Source: a virus (lineage: Duplodnaviria; Caudoviricetes). From it: a DNA stretch of 64,000 nucleotides. Shown here one piece after another: positions 2,747 through 61,989 of this stretch (the first letter of the stretch is position 1; every line of letters starts with the position of its first letter). The stretch covers positions 128,001-192,000 of IMG/VR virus record IMGVR_UViG_3300028588_000015; one strand, given 5' to 3'. The notes beneath the pieces are model-generated. The model saw only the letters and a program-made list of their open reading frames with translations, did not search any database and had not been told where the DNA came from. Made by a program: the position numbers and the translations under genes.

Positions 2747-2752
2747 AGCGGC

Positions 2753-2808
2753 ATACACCCCCTCTCTACCCTTCCCAATAACGGGATGGCTGTAGAGAGG
2801 GGGTGTAT
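2753..2808. terminator. Bidirectional hairpin between convergent genes
   Basis: atacaccccctctctac / gtagagagggggtgtat inverted repeat flanked by CGGCATA (2749) and TATGCC (2815). Confidence 0.8.
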
Positions 2809-2845
2809 TGCTTTTATGCCTTATTTTTTGTTTCCTTGGTGCAAC

Positions 2846-3268
2846 TTACTCTTTGATGTACTGATCGAACTCACGGTCGATCAGGTGGCCTTTTTTGCTA
2901 CCGCCGATCTTTTTCTTGAACCCAGCTTTCGTGAAGACAGCAATCGATGCATGGTTATCGGACTCGATCCATGCACGGCCTTTCTTGTTCATATAGAAAA
3001 TCGTCAAAAAGCCAACGGCTACACCTTTGCCACGGTACTTGGGATCAACGAAGATTGAGTCGGTCTGGTAGTACCCATCTGATTTTCGTTTTACCCAAGC
3101 CAAACCCGCTAACTCACCCTCATGGTAGATCAGGTGCATATTGGAGTCAGGCTCTTCGAGAACGCTCTCACCCAAGAAGCGATCCTTCGACGCCATGCGG
3201 ATAAGTTCGCGGATGCGATCGTCTTCCTTGTGGCCTTCTAGCGCCATGCGCAAGTATTTACTCATCAT
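2846..3268 (-). CDS. GNAT-family acetyltransferase
   Basis: Acetyl-CoA motif A IFVDPKYRGKGVA and motif B N.ASIAVFTKAGF; ATGA overlap with upstream gene; N-terminal leader ending in ALE. Confidence 0.85.
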   Translation of the reverse strand: MMSKYLRMALEGHKEDDRIRELIRMASKDRFLGESVLEEPDSNMHLIYHEGELAGLAWVKRKSDGYYQTDSIFVDPKYRGKGVAVGFLTIFYMNKKGRAWIESDNHASIAVFTKAGFKKKIGGSKKGHLIDREFDQYIKE

Positions 3269-4002
3269 CGTGCCCAAGCCACGAGTGGATTGTCGTGACT
3301 CAACATGGCAGCGCGCAAGACCTTCTCGCCCATGTATTCCCCCTTGGTGATCGACACGGCTGTGAACTCTTGGTCGTGTTTCCAGCTTTCGGTGTTTTGG
3401 TCCACCGGGCCTTCGATCTTCCAGTACCCCTTGTCGAGGTGAATATTCTTGGAGAACCGAATTCCACCCTCCTTCACGATCTCCGCGTAAAAGGTCATGC
3501 GACCCTGCGGGGTCTTTCTTGAACGCGCCACGTACTGCAAGGAAACACAGAAGAACCGCCCCGCAGTCTCAGGAATGAATTCCGTCGTCTCGGGGCTGTA
3601 TGACACCATCCAGTGTTCATCCGAGGCCGCTTGATCGTGCACCATGCTCTTGTTGGGTTTGAGCGCAGCACCGAAGGGGAGGGCATAAATCTTGTACCCG
3701 CCTTTATAGTCCTTCTCTTCCCCGTCGGAAGCATACTCGAAGAAGTCGCTCTCGGTAGCTGCGTAACCGAGGATACAGCCCAACAGCGTCGGTGCCACAT
3801 AGACCCGTGTGATGTCCCGGCATTCGCTGGGTGCACCCCGCAGGGTCAGCTGCGGGATGAATTTGCGAATGTTGGTGTTGGTACTGATGTGGATGAAGTA
3901 GTCGATTCCCACTTCCTCCGGCGTCACCACCGTGGTGTTCTTTTGCACCCGGGCACTACAGTGCTCTAGGTGTTTTTCTAACTTATCCCGATCATTGGCC
4001 AT
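3265..4002 (-). CDS. Hypothetical phage protein, possible ADP-ribosyltransferase-like fold
   Basis: 245-aa ORF; YFIHIS...RVYVAPT...DEHWMV pattern; function is inference only. Confidence 0.6.
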   Translation of the reverse strand: MANDRDKLEKHLEHCSARVQKNTTVVTPEEVGIDYFIHISTNTNIRKFIPQLTLRGAPSECRDITRVYVAPTLLGCILGYAATESDFFEYASDGEEKDYKGGYKIYALPFGAALKPNKSMVHDQAASDEHWMVSYSPETTEFIPETAGRFFCVSLQYVARSRKTPQGRMTFYAEIVKEGGIRFSKNIHLDKGYWKIEGPVDQNTESWKHDQEFTAVSITKGEYMGEKVLRAAMLSHDNPLVAWAR

Positions 4003-4014
4003 AATTGTCCTTTT

Positions 4015-5565
4015 CTAGTGCATGCTGGCAGTTTCCCAAAACTCTTCGCCACCGCCATCAGCCGACAACGCACCGCCACCCACACGTGACAGCGTCGAGT
4101 CTTCTTTACCCACGTCATCGCGCAGTCCACCGATGGGATGGAATCCTATCACCACATGATGAAACTCTTCCGGCAGCGGATCGTTCACACGCTGCTTACC
4201 ACGCTGGATCGTAAGGTAAGATCGCCCGTTGAACTTTTCGATGTGGATGAAGATTTCGCAATCGAATTCGTTGTCGAGCGACGCACAGCCCTTGTAGTAA
4301 CCCTTGCCGACCAGTTCCTTGACAAAGCCCGAAGTGTTGAGGCGCAAGATATTACGCTTGGCATCGGTCGAGATTTGGTGCGGGGTGATCAGGGTGATCT
4401 TACGGGTGTTGCAGAATTCGCGCATCCGGGCAAACATGTCTTGCATGTCACCGCCAGCGACACCACCGCCGAAGCAACCGATCGCCGGTACCAGGCCAAG
4501 ATAGTCGAGGATCAGGGCGTGGATTTCGTAACCCATGCTCTCGTACTTGATGATCTCGTTACAGATGTCGCGGTACGTCATCTGCTTGGCCTTCATTCGC
4601 AGCATCTTGACTTTGTAGCCGTTGACACCCATCTTCAGGCGCACGTACTTGGCGATGTCTTCTGCGGAAAGACCTTGCAAATCGGCCTTCTGGCCGGTTT
4701 CATTCTCGTACAGCGACTTGTACAGGAACTCGTAGTTCTTCTCCAACGTATCTTCAAACGAGATACGCAGGATGAGTGGCTGCTTAGTGTCGGTCGCATC
4801 AAACATGAACGGCTTGTTGTACAACGCGATGTGCTTCATGAGGTTCAGCGTAAACCCCGTTTTGAAATTGTGTTGCAGCGCCGCCACGCACACCAAGTCA
4901 CCACGACGCATGCCGCCTGAGAGCATGCGGTTCACACCCTGCCAGCCGGTCTTGAGCAGGGATTCGCCGCTTTCTTCCATCTGGACTTGGGTACCGATTG
5001 CCGTCATCTCGTCGATGTTGTCCAGATCGATCTCAGCCACTAGCGCCGGGTGCTTGGTGTTGGCACTGTCAATCGTGTAGGGGTCGAGTTCCCCTTGCAA
5101 CTGTTGCAGGTACTTGGCCCAGTTGTCGATCTTCTCCGGTTCGAACTTGGCGGTACGGGCAAACTTCTGGAGAATCTCTTGCGACTTTTCAAACGCAAAA
5201 TGGTTGTTGAGTTTGCGGTTCAGGTTGATGCACGTCTTTTGCAGCGTGCGCTCGTCCATGTCGTGTTCGATACCGTCACGGACGGCTTCGTACGAGATGT
5301 TGTCTTCGCGCAGGTTCATGCGCAGTACTTGCAGCATCTCGGTCAGTTCGTAACGATGCGTTGGTGGGTCATTACACATCATGATGGCCGTGTCCTTGAG
5401 GCCTTGCAAAATGTCGCGCTCACTGTCCACACCGAGGTTAATCTCGGGCATCTTAATACGTTCCAGAACTTCGCGCACCAGCTTGTCCGATCGATCGCCG
5501 TTGTTCAGTTGACTCTGGCGATAGAGTAGGGTAATGCAGGTGATCAAGAGGAGTTTGTTCGTCAT
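4015..5565 (-). CDS. dnaB: DnaB-like replicative helicase (phiKZ gp118-like)
   Basis: LKTGWQGVNRML..G.RRGD; divergent Walker A ALQHNFKT; LILDYL Walker B; TPHQIS; QRGKQR; lies divergent from the capsid operon as in phiKZ; start placed at MTNKLLL. Confidence 0.88.
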   Translation of the reverse strand: MTNKLLLITCITLLYRQSQLNNGDRSDKLVREVLERIKMPEINLGVDSERDILQGLKDTAIMMCNDPPTHRYELTEMLQVLRMNLREDNISYEAVRDGIEHDMDERTLQKTCINLNRKLNNHFAFEKSQEILQKFARTAKFEPEKIDNWAKYLQQLQGELDPYTIDSANTKHPALVAEIDLDNIDEMTAIGTQVQMEESGESLLKTGWQGVNRMLSGGMRRGDLVCVAALQHNFKTGFTLNLMKHIALYNKPFMFDATDTKQPLILRISFEDTLEKNYEFLYKSLYENETGQKADLQGLSAEDIAKYVRLKMGVNGYKVKMLRMKAKQMTYRDICNEIIKYESMGYEIHALILDYLGLVPAIGCFGGGVAGGDMQDMFARMREFCNTRKITLITPHQISTDAKRNILRLNTSGFVKELVGKGYYKGCASLDNEFDCEIFIHIEKFNGRSYLTIQRGKQRVNDPLPEEFHHVVIGFHPIGGLRDDVGKEDSTLSRVGGGALSADGGGEEFWETASMH

Positions 5566-5712
5566 TTTCTTAAGACTTTCGTTTTTCGTGGCACTATTTA
5601 TTGTAAGGCTGTCTGCTCGGCGCAAGGTTTTCTTAGGATGACTCTTGGCTTCGTTCATACATGGAGTAACCCATTTTTTAAATTACTGTTCTACTACTTA
5701 GGGGGTTCTCAA

Positions 5713-6345
5713 GTGAGCATTGGGAATGTGAAAAACAAGCTTTCTTCGGTGATTTTTATCCCGTATTGGATTGCCGAAACCATCCAGCGAATGGGTCTGG
5801 CGTTGAGCGATGTCGTGGACTACGAAAAGATTCGCCCGACGCTCTCCATGCATGATATGGCAGGCTTCATGGCCGTGCAGTATGAATCCGACCGTTTGCT
5901 GTATTCCGGATCGCCCGGCGACGGTCCGGTCAGCTGTATGGGAAACGACCTCATCACGGTGTGGCGGTTCCTCACCCACGCTTGGCCGGTTGAGCAAGGC
6001 ACGTTCAGTGTCGGCAAAAAAACGTCGGAAGATTTCAACCGGACGTACGAATATGCGGGCGATGCCACCGTCAAAGGCGACGTTGTATCCAGATTGTATG
6101 GACAAGCTGTAAAGCAAGCGCGCTATGACCATGCCTTCGATGTGGTCAATCTGGCACCGCAAGTGGTCGGGGTGGTTGTTTATCCCGGTTACTTTGACCA
6201 AGCCAAAATCGATCTGTCCCTGCAACACCAATTGATCTGTTCCTTGATGCAAGTATTTTATGCACAAGGTGCGCCCTACGAACAAATCGCGGCTACCGCA
6301 ATTTATCGTAGACATCTCGAACTATTATCTGGCGAGCAAAGCTAA
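5713..6345 (+). CDS. Putative virion protein (phiKZ gp119-like position)
   Basis: Lies between helicase and MCP; GTG 5713 after ggggg SD-like; ORF track start 5638 is probably too far upstream. Confidence 0.65.
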   Translation: MSIGNVKNKLSSVIFIPYWIAETIQRMGLALSDVVDYEKIRPTLSMHDMAGFMAVQYESDRLLYSGSPGDGPVSCMGNDLITVWRFLTHAWPVEQGTFSVGKKTSEDFNRTYEYAGDATVKGDVVSRLYGQAVKQARYDHAFDVVNLAPQVVGVVVYPGYFDQAKIDLSLQHQLICSLMQVFYAQGAPYEQIAATAIYRRHLELLSGEQS

Positions 6346-6410
6346 GTAATACTTTGAGGCCACATGCCCCAAAAGCACATTTCCATTAACTAGGATAAGG
6401 TTCCTGAACC

Positions 6411-8606
6411 ATGTCGAAATTCTCCACCAAAGCCGGCGGTCAACGCACCGACGCTTCCCAAGCAAACCTGACCGGCCTGGCGACCATGGTGTCGCAACTG
6501 AAAGCCGACACCCAACACAAGCCGGGCGCCACGCTGGTACCGGCCTCCGTCGCCCAGACCGTCGTCGCCATGGAAGGTTACAGCGACGCCGACGTCAACG
6601 ACATGACCAGCGCCCTGAAGGGCCTGAAGTCGTCGCTGGAAAGCTATTTCGGCGGTTTCCAGATCCAGCCGACCGAACACCAGAAAGAAGCCGCCATGTT
6701 CGGCGCCGCCCTGGCTGCGGACCCGAAAGGCTCGATGAACTGGAACGCGGGCAAGAAGCAGCAGCCGGACGACAACACCGTCTACGTGAACCCGGTCGGC
6801 GGCGACATGTTCTACGAAACGCCGATGAAGAAGGCGATGGAATCGTACGACGAGCGCGACAACACCCACGTCACCACCTACTCGACGACCTACAATCTGA
6901 TGGCCTCGCGCCAGGGCCCGTTCGCCGAGATGTTCTTCCCGACCGTCATCGTCGCGCCCGACCAAGTGGGCTTCGAAACCACCATCCGCCTGAACAGCGT
7001 GATGTCCGAAGTCAAGTCGAGCATCGACGGTTCGGCCGCCGAATTCAACAAGAAGAACCTGATCCAGGCGACCATCAACCCGGACATCTTCACCCCGGAC
7101 CAGACCAAGGTCGTGCCGGTGTACCGTGACGAATCGAAAGCCAAGTTCGTCGATGCGTCGCTGATCACCCCGTACGACGTCCTGGTCGACACCGAGAAGG
7201 TCAAGTCCTCGGCCGTCAAGTTCGGCGTGCGCTTCGGCCTGATGCCGATCAGCCAGTCCGACGCCCTGCTGAAAACCGGCACCATCGACTACGGCGATGC
7301 GCTGGACACCAACGTCGAACTGGAAACCGTGTTCGTCAAGCTGAGCGGCACCGTCGGCGGCAACGCCACCACCGAAGTGTTCAAGGTCTCGACCAAGCGT
7401 CTGCCGACCGCGGTGTTCACCAAGCGCGTGCAGGGCCTGGATCGCGAAATGAACCTCGTGTTCAGCAACGATGCCTTCACCTTCACCAAGGACACCAAGA
7501 CCGCTGGCGGCAATGCGTCGGCACTGCTGGCCGTCCTGGGCACCAACCGCGTGCGCGTGCGCCTGGCTTCGACCGGTACCTGCAACCTGCAAACCTCGGA
7601 AACCCAGCTGATCGCTCACCCGATCGAAGTCGTGGCTGTCCTCGACGAAAACAACGAGCGTCAACCGCTGGACTCCGGCGCCACCGGCACCGCAGCCACC
7701 CTGGTCAACGGCGGTGAACTGATCGGCTTCACGCTGACCGCCCACCGCGTCAACACCAACCAGCGTCAACGTGGCCAGCTGCTGGACACCGTGTACTACA
7801 ACCAGGTCTACACCGTGCCGCTGCGTGCGCCGATGTCGATCCCGCGTCCGCGTACTGCCGGCGAAGAGAACGACGCAGCCGACCTGGCCGCACTGATCAC
7901 CGCCACGCACATCAAGATCAACAACGCCGCCATCGCGACGCTGCTGGAAGCTGCGGAATTCCTGGAAGAGTACTACGACGCCCGCGACACCTTCGAAACC
8001 CAACCGGCCATCCTGGGCGTGGCGCGTCACCTGGTGACCGCGTACTTCAAGCGCACCACGATCCACCTGCCGGACGTGATCCAGTCGCTGACCTCGAGCG
8101 ACAAGCGCGAGAACATCCAGCAAGCCATCGTCGGCGTGCTGCGCGACCAGGTGTTCAACGCGTACCGTGACTCGGGCTGGCAAGCGGCTGCGGACATGCT
8201 GGCTGGCGGTGACGGCGGCAAGCCGGTCATCCTGATCGGTACCGACCCGGTGATCGCTTCCTGGCTGGCGGTGACGGGCGACAACCGTCTGCTGGGTATC
8301 GACGGTTACGAAGTCGAAGTCCAATCGACGCTGAACAAGTACATGCGCGGCAAGATGATCGTCGCCTTCGGCCAGAAGAACTCGACCGGCAAGATCAACC
8401 CGATGCACTTCGGCAACATGGCCTACAAGCCGGAACTGACCCTGGTCCTGCCGACATACCGCAACGGCCAGACCAGCAAGGAACTGATGGTGGCGCCGTC
8501 GTACCTGCACGTGGTCAACTGCCCGATCATGATGGTATTCGACGTGACCGGTATCAGCCAAGTCGCAAGCGGCCAAGTGCCGGTGCCGACCAAAGAAGCC
8601 GCGTAA
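6411..8606 (+). CDS. Major capsid protein (phiKZ gp120-like)
   Basis: 731 aa; AMESYDERD...YNLMASRQGPFAEMFFPTV and FGNMAYKPEL motifs; very strong codon bias; AME/SLE protease-type sites; terminators downstream. Confidence 0.93.
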   Translation: MSKFSTKAGGQRTDASQANLTGLATMVSQLKADTQHKPGATLVPASVAQTVVAMEGYSDADVNDMTSALKGLKSSLESYFGGFQIQPTEHQKEAAMFGAALAADPKGSMNWNAGKKQQPDDNTVYVNPVGGDMFYETPMKKAMESYDERDNTHVTTYSTTYNLMASRQGPFAEMFFPTVIVAPDQVGFETTIRLNSVMSEVKSSIDGSAAEFNKKNLIQATINPDIFTPDQTKVVPVYRDESKAKFVDASLITPYDVLVDTEKVKSSAVKFGVRFGLMPISQSDALLKTGTIDYGDALDTNVELETVFVKLSGTVGGNATTEVFKVSTKRLPTAVFTKRVQGLDREMNLVFSNDAFTFTKDTKTAGGNASALLAVLGTNRVRVRLASTGTCNLQTSETQLIAHPIEVVAVLDENNERQPLDSGATGTAATLVNGGELIGFTLTAHRVNTNQRQRGQLLDTVYYNQVYTVPLRAPMSIPRPRTAGEENDAADLAALITATHIKINNAAIATLLEAAEFLEEYYDARDTFETQPAILGVARHLVTAYFKRTTIHLPDVIQSLTSSDKRENIQQAIVGVLRDQVFNAYRDSGWQAAADMLAGGDGGKPVILIGTDPVIASWLAVTGDNRLLGIDGYEVEVQSTLNKYMRGKMIVAFGQKNSTGKINPMHFGNMAYKPELTLVLPTYRNGQTSKELMVAPSYLHVVNCPIMMVFDVTGISQVASGQVPVPTKEAA

Positions 8607-8628
8607 GCGCTTCCGGCACAACATGCTG

Positions 8629-8650
8629 GTACGCCACTTCGGTGGCGTAC
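8629..8650 (+). terminator. UUCG-loop hairpin after MCP
   Basis: gtacgccac-ttcg-gtggcgtac; weak U tract. Confidence 0.65.
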
Positions 8651-8680
8651 TGGTTTGTGAGATGTCAGCTTTTGGGGCTG

Positions 8681-8723
8681 CCCCTCGTTCTCGGGCGCGC
8701 TCGGGAGCGAGGGGTTTATGCCG
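8681..8723 (+). terminator. Second hairpin after MCP, followed by TATGCCG
   Basis: cccctcgttctcg...cgggagcgagggg then tttatgccg. Confidence 0.7.
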
Positions 8724-8781
8724 CTTTATTAAAATACCGGGTCTATCTATCTCGTAGTCAATTACCTACTGGAGAATACGC

Positions 8782-9636
8782 ATGGACCTCGCCATCGAAA
8801 ACTACACCGAAAACCAAAGCGTAGCACTCTTCTTTCCGGCACAAGAAGTGCAACCGTCGACACTCTTGGAATATGAGCGTACCAACTTTTATTGCAGTGC
8901 CAAGGGTGTCGTGCCGGAAGAAAAATATTTTAGTATCATGCGCCCGGCGCGCAATTCAGATTCAGCGTTGGCTGTGGTGGCCGCGATAACGTTTACTAAT
9001 ATGGCAGTCGACGCACTCGTCGAGAGCCATGACACCCTGAACGATGCGCGCTTTCCCGTCGAGGATCGTTCGATGCCACTTTGGGCGATCGAATACGGAT
9101 TAAAACCTTTTGTATCGGACAAAGCATTTCATTTCTTCCATGATAACAAGAATGCTTTCGAGACAGTCACAAAGATCTGCACTGCGCTGAAAGAATCATT
9201 GTGGTTAATGCGTAAAGCATGTGTTACGCCTGAAACGTATCGGATGCTTGAAGAGAAGAAAAAGACTCTTCACTTCACTGTAATATGCGACGCAAAAATT
9301 CAAGCCTATTTGAATTATCTCGGTAAATTTGATACCGACAACTTCCCCTTCACTGTGAAATTTGTTTCAAGTGTGCATACCAAACTAAAGGGGCAGTTGT
9401 ACTTGTCCATCTCACTGCACGATAAAACTGTGCCAGAAAAGGTAGAACAGGCTTTTGGAGCCCTGCTCTACAACCCGTCGAGTAGGCTGGTAAAAAGTAA
9501 AGATAACTTGACATCGGATGTCCTGTTGGTAAAAGCACGTACAGTCGCAGGTTTGCCGATCTTAAGCCGCTTGAGTTTTACACTCAAGAGCATCGGCGAA
9601 GAAATGAGCACTAACCTCGCACCAAGTTTCGAATAA
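8782..9636 (+). CDS. Hypothetical conserved jumbo-phage protein (gp121-like position)
   Basis: 284-aa ORF with ggag SD, directly downstream of MCP. Confidence 0.75.
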   Translation: MDLAIENYTENQSVALFFPAQEVQPSTLLEYERTNFYCSAKGVVPEEKYFSIMRPARNSDSALAVVAAITFTNMAVDALVESHDTLNDARFPVEDRSMPLWAIEYGLKPFVSDKAFHFFHDNKNAFETVTKICTALKESLWLMRKACVTPETYRMLEEKKKTLHFTVICDAKIQAYLNYLGKFDTDNFPFTVKFVSSVHTKLKGQLYLSISLHDKTVPEKVEQAFGALLYNPSSRLVKSKDNLTSDVLLVKARTVAGLPILSRLSFTLKSIGEEMSTNLAPSFE

Positions 9637-9640
9637 GTAA

Positions 9641-9671
9641 AAGACGGGCGTAGCGTCCGTCTTTTATGCCG
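9641..9671 (+). terminator. Hairpin terminator plus TATGCCG
   Basis: aagacgggcg-tag-cgtccgtctt then ttatgccg. Confidence 0.75.
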
Positions 9672-9691
9672 CTAAGTCAAAATTCGTACAA

Positions 9692-9702
9692 TCACATATT
9701 AC
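9692..9702 (+). promoter_or_regulatory. Candidate early promoter, TCACATAT motif
   Basis: tcacatattac upstream of the operon holding the non-virion RNAP subunit; resembles the phiKZ early consensus TATATTAC; motif recurs at 29270 and 58327. Confidence 0.45.
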
Positions 9703-9765
9703 AAACCTGAGCAGGATCAACTCAGATTCTGTTGGCTTCTGTTTGATTAGATGTGAGAGTCGATT

Positions 9766-10932
9766 ATGGATAATCCACAAAACGTTGTACCTTCGCACTT
9801 TGGTTTGCCAGCGCTAACATCACAGGGCGAACTTAATACCCGCACGACGCTCTCGCCCGTACAGTATCGCGTGGAGTTTGTCAATAATCTAGGTGCGCCT
9901 GTCAGTGTTTTGATGCGTAATGGCTTGAAGTTCAATATGGATTCCGAGCCCAGCTTTACCCACCGGACATTCACCATCCGGGTGTTCATTACCATCAACT
10001 CCAGCGCGTACGGGAGCATTGTTGATTCATTGCGCGCTGCTGCTGCGGGCGATGCTCCAGAGTTGGCAGTATTGAGCCAAGCCTTTGGCATTTCCGTGGA
10101 AGGCAATATGTGGCGCGGCGGTACCTTAACCTTGGACTACGACTTGACCTTGGAGCAGTTATACGACCTGGGCGGTACAGTGTACTACCACGAAGTGGAT
10201 TACGTGGTGTCACTCGAAACCAACCACGCTCACTTGCACCATCCACATAGTGAGCAAGGCAGGAAGAATCAAGTGCTGGTCGAATGTCCTTTATTTAACG
10301 ATCGCTTTGAAAGGGAGACAGGCGGTACCCCGATCGGGTTTGGCTATTCCATCACGATGGTCAACAACGACGGCAAGAAACAAGTGCGGTATATCAACAT
10401 CGCCAATCAAGTCTACCGGATCACGCCCACGGTAGACTTGACCAAAAAGGATGGAATTTATATCGTATCGAACCATTCCATGAGTAACAAAGGAGGAAGA
10501 GGTGGTTTCGAATCACGGTGGTACGACTTTGAGAATGCAGAAGAAACCTTAGGGCTTTGGAAAACACCGGAAGAAGCAAGGCACGGCGGCGACAAGTCGA
10601 TCCTAGCGAAAGAGAACCTAGCGCGCGCCCAGGCTGAAGTTGAACGACTCAGGGCAGAACGTTCCGTGTTGGACGAACAGAACGCCATCGAGAAAGCCCA
10701 ACTGGAAGCAACCATGCGTGAACATGAAGTGAGGATGGAAAAGGAGCGTGAAGAAATTGCACGGGAACGTGCTGAACGTGAATATGAAGAGAAGGTACGT
10801 CGTCAGAAGTTAGCCGACCACTATGAAGAAAAGTCATACGTACGTAAGGACACCAGTGAGGGCTTGAAATTTTTACCAAGTCTCCTTATTGGTTTGGGAG
10901 CACTCTTTAGTGTTCTCAAACTCAGTTCCTAG
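9766..10932 (+). CDS. Coiled-coil protein with C-terminal hydrophobic anchor (gp122-like position)
   Basis: E/R-rich coiled coil in the last third; C-terminal FLPSLLIGLGALFSVLKLSS. Confidence 0.8.
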   Translation: MDNPQNVVPSHFGLPALTSQGELNTRTTLSPVQYRVEFVNNLGAPVSVLMRNGLKFNMDSEPSFTHRTFTIRVFITINSSAYGSIVDSLRAAAAGDAPELAVLSQAFGISVEGNMWRGGTLTLDYDLTLEQLYDLGGTVYYHEVDYVVSLETNHAHLHHPHSEQGRKNQVLVECPLFNDRFERETGGTPIGFGYSITMVNNDGKKQVRYINIANQVYRITPTVDLTKKDGIYIVSNHSMSNKGGRGGFESRWYDFENAEETLGLWKTPEEARHGGDKSILAKENLARAQAEVERLRAERSVLDEQNAIEKAQLEATMREHEVRMEKEREEIARERAEREYEEKVRRQKLADHYEEKSYVRKDTSEGLKFLPSLLIGLGALFSVLKLSS

Positions 10933-10952
10933 CGGCGAAGCACGACGGATAG

Positions 10953-12647
10953 GTGAAAAGAACTTTTAGAAAGGGAGAAGCTGTGCTCAACAGTGCATTT
11001 AGCGACGATGAATTCGCACGCTTGGTGGACAAGTCCACAGTCAAGATCAATCCGCTCATCGGTAATGGTTTGGCCACCACGCTCATTCCGCGTGCAGCTG
11101 ACTACATCGAGAAAGCGTTTCAATCGGTGAAGTCTGATTTTCCAGCATGCGTAATCTACGGCGGAGGATCGCGTTGTACGCCACAAGAATCGTTCGACGA
11201 GAAGACCAGGAAACGTCAGAACAAAGCGGGCAAACAAGGAAGCCGGCGCAGTTACGATATTTCGCCGTCTGACCTGTACATGATGAAGTACCGGTTCCAT
11301 TACTGGGACGGGAAAAACAAGATCGAACTAGATCCGCGTTACATTTTGCTACCCGACATCCGTGACGGCGGCATCATGCAACTGAGCGGCTCGATGTGGG
11401 TGGTGTCCGCAGTGTTGATCGACCGCGTGATCTCGGTGGGCCTGTCCAACGTCTTTGTGCAGTTGAACAAGACGCGATTCATCTTCAAGCGACTGCCACA
11501 CCGCCTGATGATCGACGGGGTGGAAGAACCTGTCCAAGTAATCTGGGCCAAGGTTCACCAAGGCAACCGTACCCAAAAGGCATCCCGGGCCGTGACGACC
11601 ATGATGCATTACCTGCTCTGCAAGTATGGTTTTGCTGAAACATTCGCGCTGTTCGGCAACTGTCATCCGGTGATTCTCACTCCGGACACCGACATGTCGT
11701 TCTTCCCGGAAAACGAGTGGGCGGTAGTGCAGAGCAGTTCGGTACGCTTAAAGAAAGCAGGGCGGGCGCACTATGAGCGTTCGCATGTGCGACTGGCGGT
11801 GCGCCGTAGTGAACTGAACCAGAAGGTGATTTCGATGTTAGGTGGGCTGTTCTACGTGGTGGACCATTTCCCACTGCGAGCGCTACCGGAAAACCTGAAC
11901 TCGAAACGGATGTGGACCATTCTTCTGGGTGAACTCATCCCGGGTGAATCGGACCACGCAGGTGTGCTGTTCGAAGAAGCCGAAAAACATTTGCGCTCAC
12001 TCGACAAGTACATTGACATGCTAACCGATGAGCGCTTGCGCAACATCGGCATGCCAGTGAAGAACATCTACGAACTCTTCTCGATCATCATCGGTAAGTT
12101 CAACGAATGGTTGCTGTCGGGGTCAGAGCGGGTGGCCAGTATGTACGACAAGGAGTTCAGTATTTTGCCGTTCGTGCTGTACAACATCGTCTCGGCAATC
12201 AACAATCTTTACTTCCGCCTCAAAGCGGCTGAAGAGAAAGCAGCAAAAGCAGGAAAAGTCTTGACGCCTGAGAACATCAATGGCATCACCTTTGATTTGC
12301 TCAAGACTGGCTTGATCTTTAACATCAACAAAGGTCATGGTGAAGTGTCCACCTTAAGTGCTCCGGGTGACAACAAAGCGTTTAAGACCACGGTGATTCT
12401 GGTTTCGCAAACCAATTCGAATAACCAATCGTCAAGCCGTGATCGTTCTGGCACAAAGGACCCAACCCGGTGGGTACACGCGTCGATCGTGGAAGTGGGG
12501 TCGGCGTGGGCACTGAAGAAAAGTGATCCGTTCGGGAAAGCGTTTGCTAACCCGACAGTGGAAATGGACCACAACTGGGTGGTCAAAAGAAAGTTAGAAC
12601 ACGTGGAGTTGTTAGACAGTGTTCAAAATAAAATCCGTCGTCGTTAA
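10953..12647 (+). CDS. Non-virion RNA polymerase beta subunit, N-terminal part (phiKZ gp123-like)
   Basis: 564 aa; LPDIRDGGIMQLSGSMWVVSAVLIDRVIS; FKTTVILVSQ...HASIVEVGS...DPFGKAFANP; synteny after MCP. Confidence 0.85.
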   Translation: MKRTFRKGEAVLNSAFSDDEFARLVDKSTVKINPLIGNGLATTLIPRAADYIEKAFQSVKSDFPACVIYGGGSRCTPQESFDEKTRKRQNKAGKQGSRRSYDISPSDLYMMKYRFHYWDGKNKIELDPRYILLPDIRDGGIMQLSGSMWVVSAVLIDRVISVGLSNVFVQLNKTRFIFKRLPHRLMIDGVEEPVQVIWAKVHQGNRTQKASRAVTTMMHYLLCKYGFAETFALFGNCHPVILTPDTDMSFFPENEWAVVQSSSVRLKKAGRAHYERSHVRLAVRRSELNQKVISMLGGLFYVVDHFPLRALPENLNSKRMWTILLGELIPGESDHAGVLFEEAEKHLRSLDKYIDMLTDERLRNIGMPVKNIYELFSIIIGKFNEWLLSGSERVASMYDKEFSILPFVLYNIVSAINNLYFRLKAAEEKAAKAGKVLTPENINGITFDLLKTGLIFNINKGHGEVSTLSAPGDNKAFKTTVILVSQTNSNNQSSSRDRSGTKDPTRWVHASIVEVGSAWALKKSDPFGKAFANPTVEMDHNWVVKRKLEHVELLDSVQNKIRRR

Positions 12648-12673
12648 CTAATACCAAGAAAGAGGAAAGAATC

Positions 12674-14578
12674 ATGTTTGCTTCAGCCCAATTAAAGTAC
12701 GATCCAACCAAGCAGTACCATCCATTCATCAACATCAACCCGTCGATGCCGCCGTACGTGACGCGCCTCCAAGGTCTTAACCAAGCGGTCGAACAGTACA
12801 AGGCGTATATCTGCGGCCTGCTGGCAAACAAGGTCCAGAAGTACGCCGGCCAGAATGCCCTGCGCATGACGCTCTTCAACCTGGCCGGCGAAAACAACTT
12901 CAACAACGAGTACTTCGACCGCATGTGTAACATGTCTGTCGATGCGGTCGCGTACCTGATGGAGCGCTCGCGCGACAGCGTGGATGTAGCGCTGGAAAAA
13001 GCCACGGAAACTGTCTGCGAATACTTCGCGGCCGCTAACGCGCGCACTTACGGGGTGCTGGGCAATTACATCGACGATCCGCATGTGCGTGGGGTAGTGC
13101 AAGAAACCATTCGCGAATTCGATACCATCGTGAACGAACTCGCGCAGTTCCGTGCGCAGAAAACGAACGGCGGCACGGGGATGGGTATGGTACAAAATGG
13201 CTTTGCCCAGCCATCGTTCAACAGCCAGTCGCAGTTCTCGGGTAACGGCGGTTCGTCGTTCGCGGCAGGTTTGACTTCGTCCAACCAAGTGTCGAGCAAC
13301 TTTTCCACGACCGTGCCGGCTGCGGCAGCACCGGACAGCAACTCGGGCTTCTCGCAGTGGCCGGGGACGACGGCACCGACGCCTGTCCCACAATCGCAAC
13401 AGCAGCAGTTCGATCCGGTCACCGAAGTGGTGGAGGCGCAGCACCTGCCCGCGCACACGGGCAATTGGGTGCCAAACTTCGCCGAAGAGCCGTACTTCTA
13501 CGCGTACGATCCGCGTGAATGGAACGCACAACTGACCGTGCTGGACTCCGGCGCCACGATCCCCGACTACACCCGCAAATCGGACCAAGAAAAAATGGAC
13601 TACAACCAACACGCTACGCCGCTCGTCCTGGGCAAGATCCCGGCCTTCCTCGACATCACCCAATCGGCGCGCACGATGCAGAAGATCAGCGCCGGCATCC
13701 AGCAACTCAACGGCGAAACCCAGGAAAGCGACGACCAAGACGTGACTACGGTCAAGACCATGGTGGCGCAGGACTGGGCGTTTGCCAACAGCGAAGCCGG
13801 CGCGTGGCTCGAAGCCAGCCTGAAGCGCCTGCAAGTCGAACCGGGCGAAAACGGCCTGCCAAATGTGTACCGGGTGTACGCACGGGTGGTGGATGCCGTG
13901 ATCACTGCCACCGACAAGACCGACGTCATCAAGAGCTTGGTCAAGTGTGAGTCGTTCGTCGGTTTGCGCGACAAGATGGAAGCCCTCGGCGGTGAAATGC
14001 CGGGTGCCCTCTTCAACGTCATCAACCGTCGCCTGACCGATATGGTCAACCGCAAGCTGCGCCTCGTGCTGAGCCTGCGCAAGATCCAGATCGAGAACTT
14101 CTACGACGACATCGGCGAACTGCCCGAGTACCTGGACAACAAGTACGGCAGCGTGGTCAAGGGCGGGTTCCTGCGGGGTCAGAAGCACGACATCGCAGTG
14201 ACCCTGCAAACTCTGACCGAAGGCATGGCAGATGCCGAAGCGGCCGTGGCAATGGCCGGCATGAAGTTCCCGGAAGACAAGAAGCCGGTGATCACGTTCG
14301 TGGCTGCAAACTACAGCCTCACGTATCTCGACTGCTCGTCCTGGGACCTGAGCATGGAATTCGGCGACGACCTCCCGGTCAAGCTGAGCCAAGAATGCAC
14401 GCCGCTGTTCTACCAGCTGGTCAAGGGCGCGTTTGACGACGCCTTGCAGTTCGAAGGCAACGGCGACATGAGCAATGCCGTGGCGCGTGTCATGCTGCGC
14501 ACCAACGACGATCGTGTGTTCGAGTGCACGATGGGCAACCTGGCCGATGAAGCGTTCCTGATCACCCTCATCAAGTGA
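12674..14578 (+). CDS. Large hypothetical protein, probably highly expressed, with Q/S/G/P-rich linker
   Basis: 634 aa; codon bias like MCP; follows the nvRNAP subunit; SD gagg. Confidence 0.85.
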   Translation: MFASAQLKYDPTKQYHPFININPSMPPYVTRLQGLNQAVEQYKAYICGLLANKVQKYAGQNALRMTLFNLAGENNFNNEYFDRMCNMSVDAVAYLMERSRDSVDVALEKATETVCEYFAAANARTYGVLGNYIDDPHVRGVVQETIREFDTIVNELAQFRAQKTNGGTGMGMVQNGFAQPSFNSQSQFSGNGGSSFAAGLTSSNQVSSNFSTTVPAAAAPDSNSGFSQWPGTTAPTPVPQSQQQQFDPVTEVVEAQHLPAHTGNWVPNFAEEPYFYAYDPREWNAQLTVLDSGATIPDYTRKSDQEKMDYNQHATPLVLGKIPAFLDITQSARTMQKISAGIQQLNGETQESDDQDVTTVKTMVAQDWAFANSEAGAWLEASLKRLQVEPGENGLPNVYRVYARVVDAVITATDKTDVIKSLVKCESFVGLRDKMEALGGEMPGALFNVINRRLTDMVNRKLRLVLSLRKIQIENFYDDIGELPEYLDNKYGSVVKGGFLRGQKHDIAVTLQTLTEGMADAEAAVAMAGMKFPEDKKPVITFVAANYSLTYLDCSSWDLSMEFGDDLPVKLSQECTPLFYQLVKGAFDDALQFEGNGDMSNAVARVMLRTNDDRVFECTMGNLADEAFLITLIK

Positions 14579-14579
14579 T

Positions 14580-14622
14580 CGGCATAAAGGAGTGGGGCAA
14601 CCCACTCCTTTTTTCTTTATGC
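14580..14622. terminator. Bidirectional terminator
   Basis: CGGCATA-aaggagtggg-gcaa-cccactcctt-tttt...tatgc. Confidence 0.8.
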
Positions 14623-14637
14623 TTAAGGAGAAAAGAG

Positions 14638-14994
14638 ATGGATAATGAACAAGATGGCGCGCACAGTGAAATAACCATCGGAGGCGGAGGAAATTTCGTT
14701 CGAATTCAAAATGCGCCTTCATTACGTGATGTAATCGAAAAGAACCAAGTGTGGGAAAAAGTGTTTAACGGCATCACGATGATGCCTGAAGCACAGGGTA
14801 TCATGGTCGACAATGCAATGGAACACTTTCAAGCTGTCGTGGCCGATACCATTCGCAAACTCGACATCGCTGGTTACGATAGCGACCGGATAGCGGAGGT
14901 CACGCAGCTCTCGGGTGAGTGCATCAACAACACCATCAATGTTCTGTTTAGAATGGAGCAGGCGATGGCGAAGGAGAAAGACCGTGGCGGATAA
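14638..14994 (+). CDS. HTH-like protein, family B member 1
   Basis: aaggag SD; AGYDSDRIAEVTQLSGECI HTH-like motif. Confidence 0.7.
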   Translation: MDNEQDGAHSEITIGGGGNFVRIQNAPSLRDVIEKNQVWEKVFNGITMMPEAQGIMVDNAMEHFQAVVADTIRKLDIAGYDSDRIAEVTQLSGECINNTINVLFRMEQAMAKEKDRGG

Positions 14995-16129: not shown

Positions 16130-16140
16130 TGCCGTAACGG

Positions 16141-16165
16141 GGCAACTTCGGTTGCCTATTTTTTT
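16141..16165 (+). terminator. Intrinsic terminator
   Basis: ggcaac-ttcg-gttgcc-tattttttt. Confidence 0.8.
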
Positions 16166-16185
16166 ACGTAAACAAGGAGAAGAAA

Positions 16186-16599
16186 ATGGCTGAGAAAGAA
16201 GAATTGTACGTAACAAAAGAAAACAAGCTCACGGCAAAATTCCCATTGCGCGAAGGCGTAACGCTGGATGTCGATGTGGGTTTTTGTGCAAAGAAAGGCG
16301 ACAGAGTCGTGGAAGCGTTCGGACACGTCTCGATTTACAACGTCATGTCCGATAACGTCGCGTGGAAAGGTATTTTCGAAAATGTCGCACCCCTTATGCA
16401 AAAATCGATGGTGCAAAATACCGCAGAAATTTTCAAGGCGGATGCATTCAAGGCGGTATCACGCCTGACGTTTGCCGGTCTTTCACCTGAGCAGGTCGCC
16501 GAAGAAACCGGCCTGAATGCCGAAGCCGTCGAACAACACTTGCGTTATCACGAGTTCCGCACCGGCGAAAGTGACGACGATCCATCCTACGACGAATAA
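16186..16599 (+). CDS. HTH-like protein, family B member 3
   Basis: aaggag SD; AGLSPEQVAEETGLNAEAV. Confidence 0.75.
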   Translation: MAEKEELYVTKENKLTAKFPLREGVTLDVDVGFCAKKGDRVVEAFGHVSIYNVMSDNVAWKGIFENVAPLMQKSMVQNTAEIFKADAFKAVSRLTFAGLSPEQVAEETGLNAEAVEQHLRYHEFRTGESDDDPSYDE

Positions 16600-16737
16600 G
16601 AAAGAAGATGCCAACAGTCAATTTCCTGTTGGCAAAAAAGCAAAAAAATACACAACACCGGTATAGCATAGGAAGAAAAATACTTCTCGCCTTTTATGCT
16701 CAACCATTAAAACGAAAATCAACTTAAGGAGTTTATC

Positions 16738-51383: not shown

Positions 51384-51869
51384 ATGACTCACCGAGTGTT
51401 CCAAAACCGCTCGGTAGGTCTTTGGAGTTTCTTTGCCATGAGTTTATCCAATCTGCGGGAGGTAGCAAAACAGAAAGCTGTCCGCTTTTTTGGCGCGCAT
51501 TTACCGGTTCGTATGAAACGGCTGGTACACATTGCGTCACTCGGAGCCTATCTCAAAGGCTCGACGTCCCTCGACGACGCCACGATGAACAAGCTCAATA
51601 CCGTCATGGGATTGGGCAGCAACGCTAAGGCCCTGAAACTGCCTGTGTTGCTATCACGCGTGATATGGGATGGCAAGATCCAGACACATGATCTCAAAAT
51701 GGAGACACCGCTGACAGTTACGCCGGAAGTCATGGCGCAAATGAAAGCACGCTGCATGAAGGGTACACCCCGATGGCTGCGTTATGGTGAGGACACGCTG
51801 ATCGAAAGCGAAGTGGGCAAACTGCTGACGATGTTCCAAAGTTCGCAGGAAGTGAAATCTTCGTCATAA
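51384..51869 (+). CDS. Conserved hypothetical protein
   Basis: Follows RNase H; start refined to ATG 51384. Confidence 0.7.
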   Translation: MTHRVFQNRSVGLWSFFAMSLSNLREVAKQKAVRFFGAHLPVRMKRLVHIASLGAYLKGSTSLDDATMNKLNTVMGLGSNAKALKLPVLLSRVIWDGKIQTHDLKMETPLTVTPEVMAQMKARCMKGTPRWLRYGEDTLIESEVGKLLTMFQSSQEVKSSS

Positions 51870-51873
51870 AAGT

Positions 51874-51923
51874 AAAACACCTATCCCGGACTGGCGGAGT
51901 CCCGGGATAGGTGTTTTATGCCG
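51874..51923. terminator. Bidirectional terminator plus TATGCCG
   Basis: aaaacacctatcccgg / ccgggataggtgtttt-atgccg. Confidence 0.85.
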
Positions 51924-55346: not shown

Positions 55347-55697
55347 ATGACCACTGCAACTGCACAGAAAAGCGAGGCTTACGTCGAGTCCGCCAATGCC
55401 GAAGAAGTTTTCGACAAAGTGACCCAACTGCTGACCGACGCCAATCACCCGAACCCATCCGCCTGGGTGAACGACCTCGTCAAAACCATGGGCGAACAAG
55501 TCAAGCAAGAACAGGCACCGGTGGCGCGCGTCGCCGTGAACAGCTACTGGGCGCACAAGCTCGGCATGCTGGGCATCAACAAGCGCATCGACACCGCCAA
55601 CGAGCGCTTCTGTCTCGAAGACCGCTGCTCGGAAAAGGAATGGCACGAACTGATGAAGAAGATCGTGACACCGACGATCGCCGCGCACGCCCTGTGA
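55347..55697 (+). CDS. Conserved hypothetical protein, probably highly expressed
   Basis: 116 aa; strong codon bias; followed by a terminator. Confidence 0.8.
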   Translation: MTTATAQKSEAYVESANAEEVFDKVTQLLTDANHPNPSAWVNDLVKTMGEQVKQEQAPVARVAVNSYWAHKLGMLGINKRIDTANERFCLEDRCSEKEWHELMKKIVTPTIAAHAL

Positions 55698-55703: not shown

Positions 55704-55762
55704 ACTCCCATGTAGCCGTTACCGTGAGGTAGCCCCTACATGGGAGTCTTTCTTTTATGCCG
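55704..55762 (+). terminator. Terminator plus TATGCCG
   Basis: actcccatgtag / ctacatgggagt-ctttctttt-atgccg. Confidence 0.8.
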
Positions 55763-56551: not shown

Positions 56552-57061
56552 ATGAACAAACACAATTTCACACCCAACGAGATGGAAGGCATCGGCGAAG
56601 TGTTGCGCAATGCATACCTCGCTGCATTTCTGAATCTGGGAGAAGAGAGGCAAGTAGACGTAACGCAATTTTGGCGAGAACACCTAATGACCGCCAAGCC
56701 TTACCTGATGGTAACGGAAAAAGGTGTGGTAGAAGCTTCCCGAAGAATCTTCTCGAATGAAACCTTGTTGGACTTCATGTTGCAGTTCACCAACAATTTC
56801 TTCATGCTCTGGGGGGCAGATCACAATACCCGCGTTGCATTTGTCGACCACGTATCCGTTGGTCTTTGCAATGAGATGGGTATCGCTACCGGCAAGGTGA
56901 GCAGCTACACTGCCGCGCACAAGGATGTGTATCAGCGCATGGCCACCGTCGATGACGTAAAGAATGTGCTGTCACGCAACACGTGGCTGTTGGTATTGGT
57001 CATCTCACCGACTTACTTGTCGTTCCGAGAATACGACCAAGAAAAGGGTAAGAAGAAATGA
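56552..57061 (+). CDS. Hypothetical protein
   Basis: 169 aa in operon. Confidence 0.75.
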   Translation: MNKHNFTPNEMEGIGEVLRNAYLAAFLNLGEERQVDVTQFWREHLMTAKPYLMVTEKGVVEASRRIFSNETLLDFMLQFTNNFFMLWGADHNTRVAFVDHVSVGLCNEMGIATGKVSSYTAAHKDVYQRMATVDDVKNVLSRNTWLLVLVISPTYLSFREYDQEKGKKK

Positions 57062-57774
57062 AAGCGCTGGAAGGGCAGGCCGATATCTACATCAGTCTCG
57101 ACGAACTGCTCGATACCCGTCGGGGCACCTTGGAACTGATGGACCCGGCGCTCAACGAACAGATCGACGAAGAGGCGTACCAGAAACGCGCCTCGGATGT
57201 GTTTCCTGGTGTAAACCGAACAGACTTTCGAGAACGCTACAAGAATCGCGACGGCGACACGCTGATGGTCAGTGTCATGACCAATGCGATCAAATTGCTG
57301 CGCAAACTCGTGGCTACGGCTGCCGAGCAAATGGACTCCCGGCCGTACTACAGCCAATGCTCGATCGTCGTGAACTGCCACCCGTACAACCTGCATCAGG
57401 CTGTGGTTGACGCTCTGCACCAAGCTCTGCAAGTGCGCATCGGGGTGGACCTCCCGATCAAGATGGTCAACTGGCCCATCTCGGTCCTCACGCCGGAGAA
57501 ATGTAAAAAAGAGTTTGGTATCCTCATTATGTACAACCCGGAAGAGTGGTTTAATACGCACATGCCGGCGTTGGAACGTAACCCGATGCCAGAAGTCATC
57601 ATGTTGGCCCCGATGATCCATCACGTGCTGGAACCAAATGACAAAGAATTGGGGCAACTCAAAGCGGCAGGTGCTGCCCCGTTCTTAGCGTTCGAAATGA
57701 TGGCGCGGCCGTTGGTGTCACTTGACATGATTGAAGTGGAATTCTTTTCCATTTTAAATGCAAACGGCATATAG
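57058..57774 (+). CDS. Conserved jumbo-phage protein (gp147-like), possible HAD-like fold
   Basis: IYISLDELLDTRRGTL N-terminal motif. Confidence 0.72.
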   Translation: MKALEGQADIYISLDELLDTRRGTLELMDPALNEQIDEEAYQKRASDVFPGVNRTDFRERYKNRDGDTLMVSVMTNAIKLLRKLVATAAEQMDSRPYYSQCSIVVNCHPYNLHQAVVDALHQALQVRIGVDLPIKMVNWPISVLTPEKCKKEFGILIMYNPEEWFNTHMPALERNPMPEVIMLAPMIHHVLEPNDKELGQLKAAGAAPFLAFEMMARPLVSLDMIEVEFFSILNANGI

Positions 57775-57802
57775 CCTAGTGGGGCATTTTGCCCCACTAG
57801 GC
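57765..57802. terminator. Hairpin between convergent genes with CGGCATA overlapping the stop codon
   Basis: gcctagtggggc-atttt-gccccactaggc. Confidence 0.8.
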
Positions 57803-57803
57803 C

Positions 57804-58265
57804 TTATTCTGCTGCACTGGGTAGTGGCGTGGTGACAACCGTATTTTGCGTGAATTCTTGGTAAGACAATTGACGCGGATTGACCGACGTTTCGCCGTCA
57901 ACGAGGTTGATACCTACTAAGTGATCCGGCACGGTGGGAATCATACCCACACCGGCGCCAGTGGGTCGCTCGTTCACGTCAACCAGGTAAGGGTTCTTTT
58001 GACCGCTGACACTTTGCAGCACGTGGGCGAGCAAACGTGCCACTTGCTCTTGGCCAGCACTGGCGCGGTCGTCCGCTTTGATGCGCATGCGACCTAGGGC
58101 AACTTTGTCGTTGCCATCCAGTGCTTTCAGGATGAGAGCTTTGTCTTTTGGATCTTCAGGGAGTTTGCCGTCTGGCATCAACAGTTGGATAAATGATTTT
58201 CGTTGGTCGACACTTTCGTCCAACAAGATTTCATCCACCGTCTTGGCGTCATTTTCGGGTAACAT
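57804..58265 (-). CDS. Hypothetical protein
   Basis: Start refined to ATG 58265 (MLPEND). Confidence 0.72.
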   Translation of the reverse strand: MLPENDAKTVDEILLDESVDQRKSFIQLLMPDGKLPEDPKDKALILKALDGNDKVALGRMRIKADDRASAGQEQVARLLAHVLQSVSGQKNPYLVDVNERPTGAGVGMIPTVPDHLVGINLVDGETSVNPRQLSYQEFTQNTVVTTPLPSAAE

Positions 58266-58326: not shown

Positions 58327-58337
58327 TCACATATCAT
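58327..58337 (+). promoter_or_regulatory. Candidate early promoter, TCACATAT motif
   Basis: Third copy, heading the 58.4-60.3 kb cluster. Confidence 0.45.
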
Positions 58338-60347: not shown

Positions 60348-60368
60348 GCGAACTTGCACCACTTCAAG

Positions 60369-60392
60369 AGAGGGCTTTGGCCCTCTTTTTTT
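60369..60392 (+). terminator. Intrinsic terminator
   Basis: agagggc-tttg-gccctct-tttttt. Confidence 0.8.
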
Positions 60393-60415
60393 CTTTGTTT
60401 TAAGGATACCCCACG

Positions 60416-61939
60416 ATGGCCACTACTCTGGCAAAAACCACCTTCGCCGCTGGGCCGCTCGACAGCGTGGCCACAGTGGACGTCTATACGCAGCGCAGCA
60501 ACAGTGTTATTAATAATCGACCCGATACCTTGGCTAACTCTGGACTGAGTCTTGCCAGTTCTTTGTTTGGCGGCAAAGGCATGTTGGCGTCGCTGCCGCT
60601 GGGTGGCGGTGTCAGTGGCCTTCTCAATGACGTCACCAAAAATTTAACGTCACAACTTGGGATCACGAATCCGAAATTAGCCAAAGCGGTTAATGCGCTG
60701 ACACCAATCGTCACCAAAGAAATTGAAAAGAAATTACCGACTGCCAAGATCAACACCATGATCGCGACAGCGGGTGGCATCGAACGCGCGATTAACATGG
60801 TCAGTAATGGCAATGTTTCAGGCGTAGTAAGTTCGGTCAATTCGATCGCACAAACTGCGGGTGTGCCGGGGATTACGATCAAAGACCCTAAGGGGTTGAT
60901 CGCCCTCAGTACCGGGTTGGTGGACCAAGGCGTCAAGAACGGTGTGCCGGGTGTATTGACAACATTGAAAAGCAGTAACATCATCACGAGTAATGCCCAG
61001 ATGAATGCCGTGGTTAAAGGTGTATTGCCGAGTATTATCCAAAAAGGCGATCTCGGGACCTTGAAAGAAATTACCACCGTAGCGCCCAGTTCGTTATCTA
61101 CGCTGGACGATAAAGCGCTCAATGAGTTTGCCAAGTATTACCCAGCGCCCGATTCACCCAAATCGATTGCACAGTACCAATCAGATTTCGGTGACACCAA
61201 GTCGACTTTTGCTGCAATTAAACCGGACTGGTTGAGCGCACCGCGCACGGCGAGCAACGGCACCACAGACGATGCATTGAATTTGGGCACGCTTAACAGT
61301 GCATCGTCGGAGTTCAAAAAAATGGTTTCCATCGGGGCATTAACTAGCGGCAATCCTGATGACAAATGGCTGCTGGCGGCCACCGCAACGCCAGTACCTG
61401 AATACACTGCCGAACAAAAAGCTGCGTGGGACGGTATCACGATCACTGCTGGAGAAACCAAGTTCACGCCATTTAACCAAGAAGAATCCGAAGCCAAGTA
61501 CGCTGCTTATCTGAAGCAGTACCCGACGCCAGAAGCACGGGCCGCCATGCTGTATCCGGCGGCCAATGGTAAGACATCGGTCAGCCAACCGCCAGTTGAC
61601 CCACGCGCGCTGGCCGAAGTGGAACGTCTTAAAACAGTACAGTCTGGCCAAAAAGCACCCGTTACCACGGTGCGCGCGCCGGGTTTCATTCAGGGTGATA
61701 TGGACCGCACCATGGACCAGTGGACTGCGGAACTTAAAACGAGTTACGAACCAGAACGAGCACTCATCGCAGCCTATACACAACAGTACGGTAAAGACTC
61801 TGTCCAAGTCCGTGCTCAAACGGCAAAAGCCGAGTCCATTAAAGTCGCCATTGACGATAAATGGAAACGGATCTACGATGCGTACTCGACCGAGTTCACA
61901 GCGGCGGTGGCTGTTTACGATCAAACAACTATTACGTGA
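60416..61939 (+). CDS. Putative virion/tail structural protein
   Basis: TTF..GP.DSVATVDVY N-terminus; convergent with the gp27-like gene. Confidence 0.65.
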   Translation: MATTLAKTTFAAGPLDSVATVDVYTQRSNSVINNRPDTLANSGLSLASSLFGGKGMLASLPLGGGVSGLLNDVTKNLTSQLGITNPKLAKAVNALTPIVTKEIEKKLPTAKINTMIATAGGIERAINMVSNGNVSGVVSSVNSIAQTAGVPGITIKDPKGLIALSTGLVDQGVKNGVPGVLTTLKSSNIITSNAQMNAVVKGVLPSIIQKGDLGTLKEITTVAPSSLSTLDDKALNEFAKYYPAPDSPKSIAQYQSDFGDTKSTFAAIKPDWLSAPRTASNGTTDDALNLGTLNSASSEFKKMVSIGALTSGNPDDKWLLAATATPVPEYTAEQKAAWDGITITAGETKFTPFNQEESEAKYAAYLKQYPTPEARAAMLYPAANGKTSVSQPPVDPRALAEVERLKTVQSGQKAPVTTVRAPGFIQGDMDRTMDQWTAELKTSYEPERALIAAYTQQYGKDSVQVRAQTAKAESIKVAIDDKWKRIYDAYSTEFTAAVAVYDQTTIT

Positions 61940-61940
61940 T

Positions 61941-61989
61941 CGGCAAAAAAAGAAGAGTCCGGGTGGACTCTTCTTTTTCTTTTATGCCG
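61941..61989. terminator. Bidirectional terminator plus TATGCCG
   Basis: cggcaaaaaa-agaagagtcc-gggt-ggactcttct-ttttc-tttatgccg. Confidence 0.85.

Follow-up and report, generated by a model that had tools for sequence, protein, structure and literature searches.

We analysed a 64,000-nt window (bases 128001-192000) of a 225,547-base IMG/VR phage contig, in which the heptamer TATGCCG recurs behind stem-loops at the ends of genes; counts given for the genome refer to the whole contig. The source run of the contig is a leaf-litter metagenome, and the genome is 53% GC. We placed the phage by tblastn. The window encodes a phiKZ gp129-type virion protein (20610-23429, minus strand; identity of 43% to Burkholderia FLC9, 35% to Ralstonia RP12/RP31, and 30% to phiKZ), a phiKZ-type major head protein (6411-8606), and a homolog (10983-12647, plus strand; 27% overall identity) of phiKZ GP123, the β-like subunit of the non-virion RNA polymerase (nvRNAP), that is, a gene for a multisubunit RNA polymerase of the phage's own. 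The order helicase / gp119-like / capsid / ... / GP123 is as in phiKZ and RP31. A megablast search of the tail-fibre gene against phage records returned no match. Judged by these homologs, whose best hits are in Burkholderia FLC9, Ralstonia RP12/RP31, and phiKZ, and by the gene order, the contig is a distant, uncultivated phiKZ-like jumbo phage of the chimalliviruses (Chimalliviridae).

A pattern search of both strands of the window found 18 copies of TATGCCG, compared to 6.92 ± 2.72 in 100 dinucleotide-preserving shuffles, none of which reached 18. Across the genome, there were 59 copies of TATGCCG versus 35 of the reversed control word. Genes were called afresh with a codon-usage model trained on long open reading frames (ORFs), giving 242 genes that cover 90.8% of the contig; 39 of the 59 copies are intergenic under these calls, where about 5 would be expected from the intergenic fraction of 9.2%. 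An earlier note on the window, made from its letters, had claimed enrichment over chance and proposed such a genome-wide count of intergenic and coding copies, and both comparisons bear it out. The most intergenic-enriched 8-mer was TTATGCCG (33 of 41 copies intergenic, 3.8 expected). The longer consensus around the motif is yTT-TATGCCG, with T at position -1 of the tail in 34 and at position -2 in 35 of 45 sites, and the tail also appears in this phage as TATGTCG, TATGACG, TATGCTG, and TTTGCCG. All 14 exact copies reported in the earlier note were recovered, each at its position and on its strand, and its five near variants are real (TATGCCT at 2815, TATGCTT at 14618, TATGACG at 29245, and TTTGCCG at 33258 and, on the minus strand, at 61941). 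The 4 window copies beyond those 14 (17114-, 22107+, 35853-, and 47828+) are intragenic, have no strong hairpin, and appear to be there by chance. We conclude that the repetition of TATGCCG is genuine and far above chance.

The earlier note had placed a stem-loop shortly upstream of every copy. This holds for 13 of its 14 copies, which follow a strong hairpin (ΔG -12 to -37 kcal/mol) at a gap of 0-10 nt; the exception is 20495(-), which has only a weak stem and follows a T-rich run. Near variants behave similarly, 4 of the 5 having a strong hairpin 0-6 nt upstream, while 2815 lies about 9 nt past the hairpin at 2756-2805 that it shares with 2749(-). Genome-wide, roughly 40 of the 59 copies are directly 3' of a strong hairpin, and in 47 of 50 hairpin-linked copies the distance from the end of the stem to TATG is 0-5 nt. 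We measured spacing on folds that excluded the motif, because GCCG pairs with upstream CGGC when the motif is included. In most copies the spacer before TATG consists of 0-4 T, with none or one T at 2749, 33213, and 42039, and the T tract reported as missing at 42039 is indeed near-absent. The tailed hairpins thus do not carry the canonical U tract of about 7-9 nt. The stems vary in sequence, without any arm sequence in common, and they do not match the CCYCCCC...GGGRRGG arms of phiKZ. We rejected a mobile repeat resembling a miniature inverted-repeat transposable element, since the hairpin sequences vary between copies and the tail alone is common to them. We also rejected leaderless mRNAs starting from the ATG inside TATGCCG: a long ORF is opened only by the ATG at 55757, and there a better-scoring gene call starts at 55850.

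Position relative to genes assigns the motif to gene ends. Of the 39 intergenic copies, 33 lie downstream of the end of a same-strand gene, while only 17 have a same-strand gene downstream (26-241 nt away); 16 face the end of a converging gene, 6 are antisense within tandem junctions, and none of the 39 occupies a promoter-only position. Exact copies are present in 15 of 16 convergent junctions (19 copies in 2,160 nt) and in none of 15 divergent junctions (1,933 nt). At convergent junctions, both strands were said to carry the motif often, and at up to one mismatch they do so in 11 of 16. The claims that the motif is oriented with the gene ending there, that 14580 is an exception (antisense, in a tandem plus-strand junction), and that the copy at 57765 lies inside a coding end also hold under the new gene calls. 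As a group, the copies do not sit, as phiKZ late promoters do, upstream of a gene that they would drive.

A separate intergenic word occupies the promoter position. The enriched word CACATAT sits within a longer motif, ..AAAAT..TTACagtCACATAT[A/C/T]AC, and 17 of the 19 copies that are intergenic in the genome point towards a gene downstream, the word being found at divergent junctions too; the ..TTACagtCACATAT.. motif behaves as a promoter. In several tandem junctions, CACATAT or a similar AAAAT-rich element follows TATGCCG at a distance of 15-25 nt, and from this terminator-then-promoter layout it follows that TATGCCG goes with the gene that has ended. We conclude that TATGCCG belongs to the gene end and is not a gene promoter.

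Hairpins with such a tail are known from the relatives of this phage. Transcript 3' ends of phiKZ were mapped by ONT-cappable-seq (Putzeys et al. 2024, microLife, PMC10914365), and 61 predicted phiKZ intrinsic terminators share a stem-loop plus TTAT region with the consensus BCCYCCCCHWWDGGGRRGGBYTTATKYYGT, six two-way terminator regions lying between convergent genes (PMC10914365). The main terminator motif of phage 201phi2-1 (motif A) strongly resembles that of phiKZ, and eight 201phi2-1 terminators are active in a host reporter trap, i.e., they also stop the host polymerase (PMC11512511). TTATGCCG is one spelling of the phiKZ consensus TTATKYYG, although its final T is not conserved here. 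The elements agree in having a GC-rich hairpin directly followed by TTAT-K-Y-Y-G, in lying 3' of genes with the orientation of the gene that ends there, in forming two-way pairs between convergent genes, and in belonging to phages with phiKZ-type polymerases. They differ in that the tail is nearly fixed as TATGCCG in this phage, whereas phiKZ mostly has TATGTTG, TATGTCG, or TATGCTG, and in that the stems here share no sequence, a clade difference in the stem and not in the tail. Moreover, 3' ends have been mapped in the known phages, while this one is uncultivated, with a genome of 53% GC. In 42-kb stretches of phiKZ, FLC9, RP31, and Xoo-sp14, we found strong hairpins with tails such as TTATGTTG, TTATGTCG, TATGCCG, and CTATGCC, and in many cases both strands carry one. 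In the GC-rich relatives (FLC9, RP12/RP31, and Xoo-sp14), the tail is often free of any T tract. Ranked by enrichment among the 4-mers of hairpin tails, TATG comes first or second in this phage and in each of these four chimalliviruses, phiKZ included (z of 9-21); in the Ralstonia jumbo phage RSL1, a small control that is not a chimallivirus, it was found in 0 of 12 hairpin tails. Behind the capsid gene, phiKZ, RP31, and Xoo-sp14 each have a terminator in a position equivalent to that of 8680-8723 in this phage.

We conclude that TATGCCG is very probably the conserved 3' tail of the transcription terminators in this phage. The hairpin-stop signal itself is already published for phiKZ-like giant phages; what is new here is its occurrence in an uncultivated relative. 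Transcription units would end in a GC-rich hairpin, with (T)TTATG-YY-G beginning 0-5 nt behind it, and the two would act as a factor-independent terminator with UUUAUGCCG in place of a long U tract. Between convergent genes, one hairpin or two adjacent ones between a left-hand CGGCATA and a right-hand TATGCCG would form a bidirectional element, CGGCATAAA-stem-loop-stem-TTTATGCCG, that stops transcription from both sides. RNA release usually occurs 7-9 nt after the stem, and because TATG starts 0-4 nt after it, the RNA would end inside or just after UAUGCCG. Canonical Rho-independent terminators likewise have a GC-rich stem-loop followed by U-rich sequence, with two-way versions at convergent genes, but here only 0-5 U remain of the U tract, and its place is taken by a fixed UAUGCCG that ordinary terminators lack. 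We infer termination function in this phage from the phiKZ and 201phi2-1 motif, with its mapped 3' ends and reporter trap.

Several points weigh against this assignment. It is reached through homology of the signal, and the stems vary and do not have the phiKZ arms. About 23 long-T-run hairpins have no TATG, so the tail is not obligatory, and the 6 antisense intergenic copies in tandem junctions have no annotated gene there to stop. In addition, an RNA-DNA hybrid that ends in G/C-rich sequence (..AUGCC) is odd for a classical hybrid-melting terminator. The tailed hairpin is one of two terminator designs in this phage and is used at nearly every convergent junction.

Table 1. Predicted terminators and tail elements in the window (window coordinates)
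Feature	Coordinates	Strand	Composition
Terminator of gene 2846-3268 (-)	2749-2805	-	hairpin 2756-2805 (ΔG -37, gap 0) + TATGCCG 2749-2755
Same hairpin, plus reading, behind 41-codon ORF ending at 2746	2756-2821	+	about 9 nt, then variant TATGCCT 2815-2821
Terminator of major head protein gene 6411-8606	8680-8723	+	hairpin 8680-8715 (ΔG -29) + TTTATGCCG
Terminator of gene 8782-9636	9640-9671	+	hairpin 9640-9664 + TATGCCG; promoter-like CACATAT next at 9693
Two-way hairpin between tandem plus-strand genes	14580-14624	both	hairpin 14581/14587-14610/14616; minus: exact TATGCCG 14580-14586; plus: TTTTCTT + TATGCTT 14618-14624 behind gene 12674-14578
Terminator of gene 20036-20335	20450-20480	+	hairpin 20450-20473 + TATGCCG
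Tail of gp129-like virion gene 20610-23429	20495-20526	-	TATGCCG 20495-20501; T-rich run, weak stem
Terminator of gene 28579-29211	29220-29251	+	variant tail TATGACG; promoter-like CACATAT at 29271
Two-way terminator, convergent junction	33213-33264	both	hairpin 33219/33220-33250/33251; minus: exact TATGCCG 33213-33219, no T tract; plus: T9 run + GCCG (TTTGCCG at 33258)
Terminator of gene 40748-41983	41994-42045	+	hairpin 41994-42036 (ΔG -28) + TG + TATGCCG; no T tract
Two-way terminator, convergent junction	46767-46814	both	CGGCATA, hairpin 46776-46808, TATGCCG; exact on both strands
Terminator of gene 51438-51869	51875-51923	+	hairpin 51875-51916 + TATGCCG; minus strand: variant TATGACG
Terminator of gene 55347-55697	55706-55762	+	hairpin 55706-55745 + CTTTCTTT + TATGCCG; 10-nt spacer, the longest in the window
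Terminator of gene 57804-58265 (-)	57765-57803	-	hairpin 57773-57803 + A + TATGCCG; motif overlaps last codons of plus gene 57058-57774
Two-way terminator, convergent junction	61941-61989	both	hairpin 61947-61978; plus: CTTT + TATGCCG 61983-61989; minus: variant TTTGCCG 61941-61947

The second terminator design consists of the terminator-like hairpins with long T runs, nearly all of which lie in tandem junctions (examples are window 60366-60389, plus strand, and G000:C1:13492-13519, 19960-19989, 22206-22249, and 205066-205105). We considered whether the two designs go with separate promoter classes and rejected this as too mixed for any claim: by eye, units from CACATAT-type promoters end about 10 times at T-run terminators and about 7 times at TATGCCG terminators. 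Upstream of the two-way terminator at 2749-2821, an uncalled 41-codon ORF (2621-2746, plus strand; MKSFAGKMLFWFIGSFVAGSFLILYAC...) that includes a hydrophobic stretch stops 2 nt short of the element, and the junction is therefore convergent. Outside the window, a gene-free stretch of about 700 nt (G000:C1:9094-9793) has a CACATAT promoter-like word at 9537 and ends in a strong hairpin plus TTTTATGCCG terminator (9741-9793). Within the window, the promoter-like motif reads ..AAAAT..TTAC(a)GT-CACATAT-[A/C/T]AC at 9693-9699, 29271-29277, and 58328-58334 (plus strand), 40-100 nt before genes, and it resembles the description of the phiKZ middle promoter (an A-rich run plus TAC(T)). The sole TATGCCG fused to a promoter-like word (..aaaaacaaacgaCACATATGCCG) is at G000:C1:35623-35633 (-), outside the window; it has no hairpin, is antisense between two plus-strand genes, and is possibly an antisense promoter. 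A search of sequencing runs with window 6000-15900 gave no RNA run, and a second search gave one, a leaf-litter metatranscriptome (run X2) that shares a small part of its words with the phage. In this run, three identical 151-nt contigs match the phage at 8311-8461, 18097-18247, and 19771-19921 (window 2000-21900); one falls in the capsid gene and none is near a TATGCCG site. These contigs indicate that phage sequence is present in an RNA library, no more than that.

The four bases TATG raise the question of how the tail relates to the phage polymerase. Late promoters of phiKZ are TATG, whose G is +1, and nvRNAP transcription is lost when any one of the four bases is mutated, although TATG alone is not sufficient for initiation (Yakunina et al. 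2015, PMC4666361); in a 2026 structure, a pocket of GP123 binds the four non-template bases (PMC12809450). The nvRNAP might therefore re-read TATG at terminators as a pause, letting the hairpin release the RNA, which would refine the terminator assignment and not replace it. The earlier note had proposed a termination signal specific to the phage RNA polymerase; the link to termination is upheld by the published motif and the position at gene ends, but the specificity is not, since the 201phi2-1 terminators stop the host polymerase in the reporter trap and a phage-specific reading is not needed. In favor of re-reading, the tail spells the core of the nvRNAP late promoter, is shared by phages infecting Pseudomonas, Burkholderia, Ralstonia, and Xanthomonas whose GC contents range from 37% to more than 55%, and is present even at sites that lack a T tract. 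The pocket residues S144, F151, H331, S334, and Q466 are invariant among GP123 homologs of five phages, and K158R, H185, N186Q, and Y406F are kept or conservative in this phage. This conservation of the pocket core fits a TATG-reading polymerase throughout the family. Against re-reading, 5 of the 14 pocket contacts (K190, S330, N398, Y399, and S402) are not conserved in this phage, the structural study describes an incomplete pocket when the complex is transcribing (PMC12809450), and UUUAU may be just a short U tract. We consider re-reading by the polymerase unlikely, if the foremost of the alternatives, and we give slightly less credence still to the wider proposal that the TATG tail is more than a short U tract and that one four-base word marks both starts and stops in chimalliviruses. 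The T7 RNA polymerase is made to stop or pause by a short conserved sequence, the class II termination signal ATCTGTT. That sequence needs no hairpin and acts on a single-subunit polymerase, and a chimallivirus parallel would be only hypothetical.

A weaker proposal, which we regard as improbable, is that the tail is a working late promoter, so that the polymerase would reinitiate at the G after each terminator and make antisense RNA at convergent junctions. The identity of the tail to the phiKZ late-promoter core (PMC4666361, PMC12809450) and the 17 intergenic copies with a same-strand gene downstream are compatible with this, as are a few copies without another recognisable promoter, e.g., genome position 37228, 26 nt before a start codon. 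However, the motif is tied to hairpins and gene ends, is densest at convergent junctions, where a restart would be pointless, and is absent from the divergent ones, where CACATAT does occur. Several tandem copies are followed by their own promoter-like element, the reference late promoter P119L has neither an upstream hairpin nor a YYG tail, and TATG by itself does not suffice for nvRNAP initiation. The suggestion of the earlier note that the heptamer is a promoter firing straight after terminators is not supported, given the divergent junctions, the 16 copies that run into converging gene ends, and the distinct promoter-like motif. The proposal that we regard as least probable places the function in the RNA, with UAUGCCG at the mRNA 3' end serving as a binding or processing site, for example one used by a nuclease, by a factor that protects 3' ends, or in export out of the phage nucleus. 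The tail is conserved beyond the needs of a U tract and chimallivirus mRNAs have to exit the phage nucleus (PMC11077065), but a stop 7-9 nt after the stem would leave most of the tail outside the RNA. The mRNA-export tag also put forward in the earlier note finds no support for a further reason: the crosslinks of ChmC, the known mRNA-binding protein, lie close to start codons and reveal no motif (PMC11077065).

Taken as the tail of a terminator, hairpin plus TATGCCG can be used in annotation to mark where the transcription units of this uncultivated jumbo phage from leaf litter end. Combined with the CACATAT-type promoter motif, it would give an operon map from sequence alone. Were the polymerase to read TATG at these sites, chimalliviruses would have a polymerase-specific pause and termination signal. 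The phiKZ tail has stayed nearly identical in sequence in a lineage that is only about 30% identical in protein and much GC-richer. Such persistence suggests that the tail is under selection, most plausibly from something that these phages share, their own polymerases, and not from their differing hosts.

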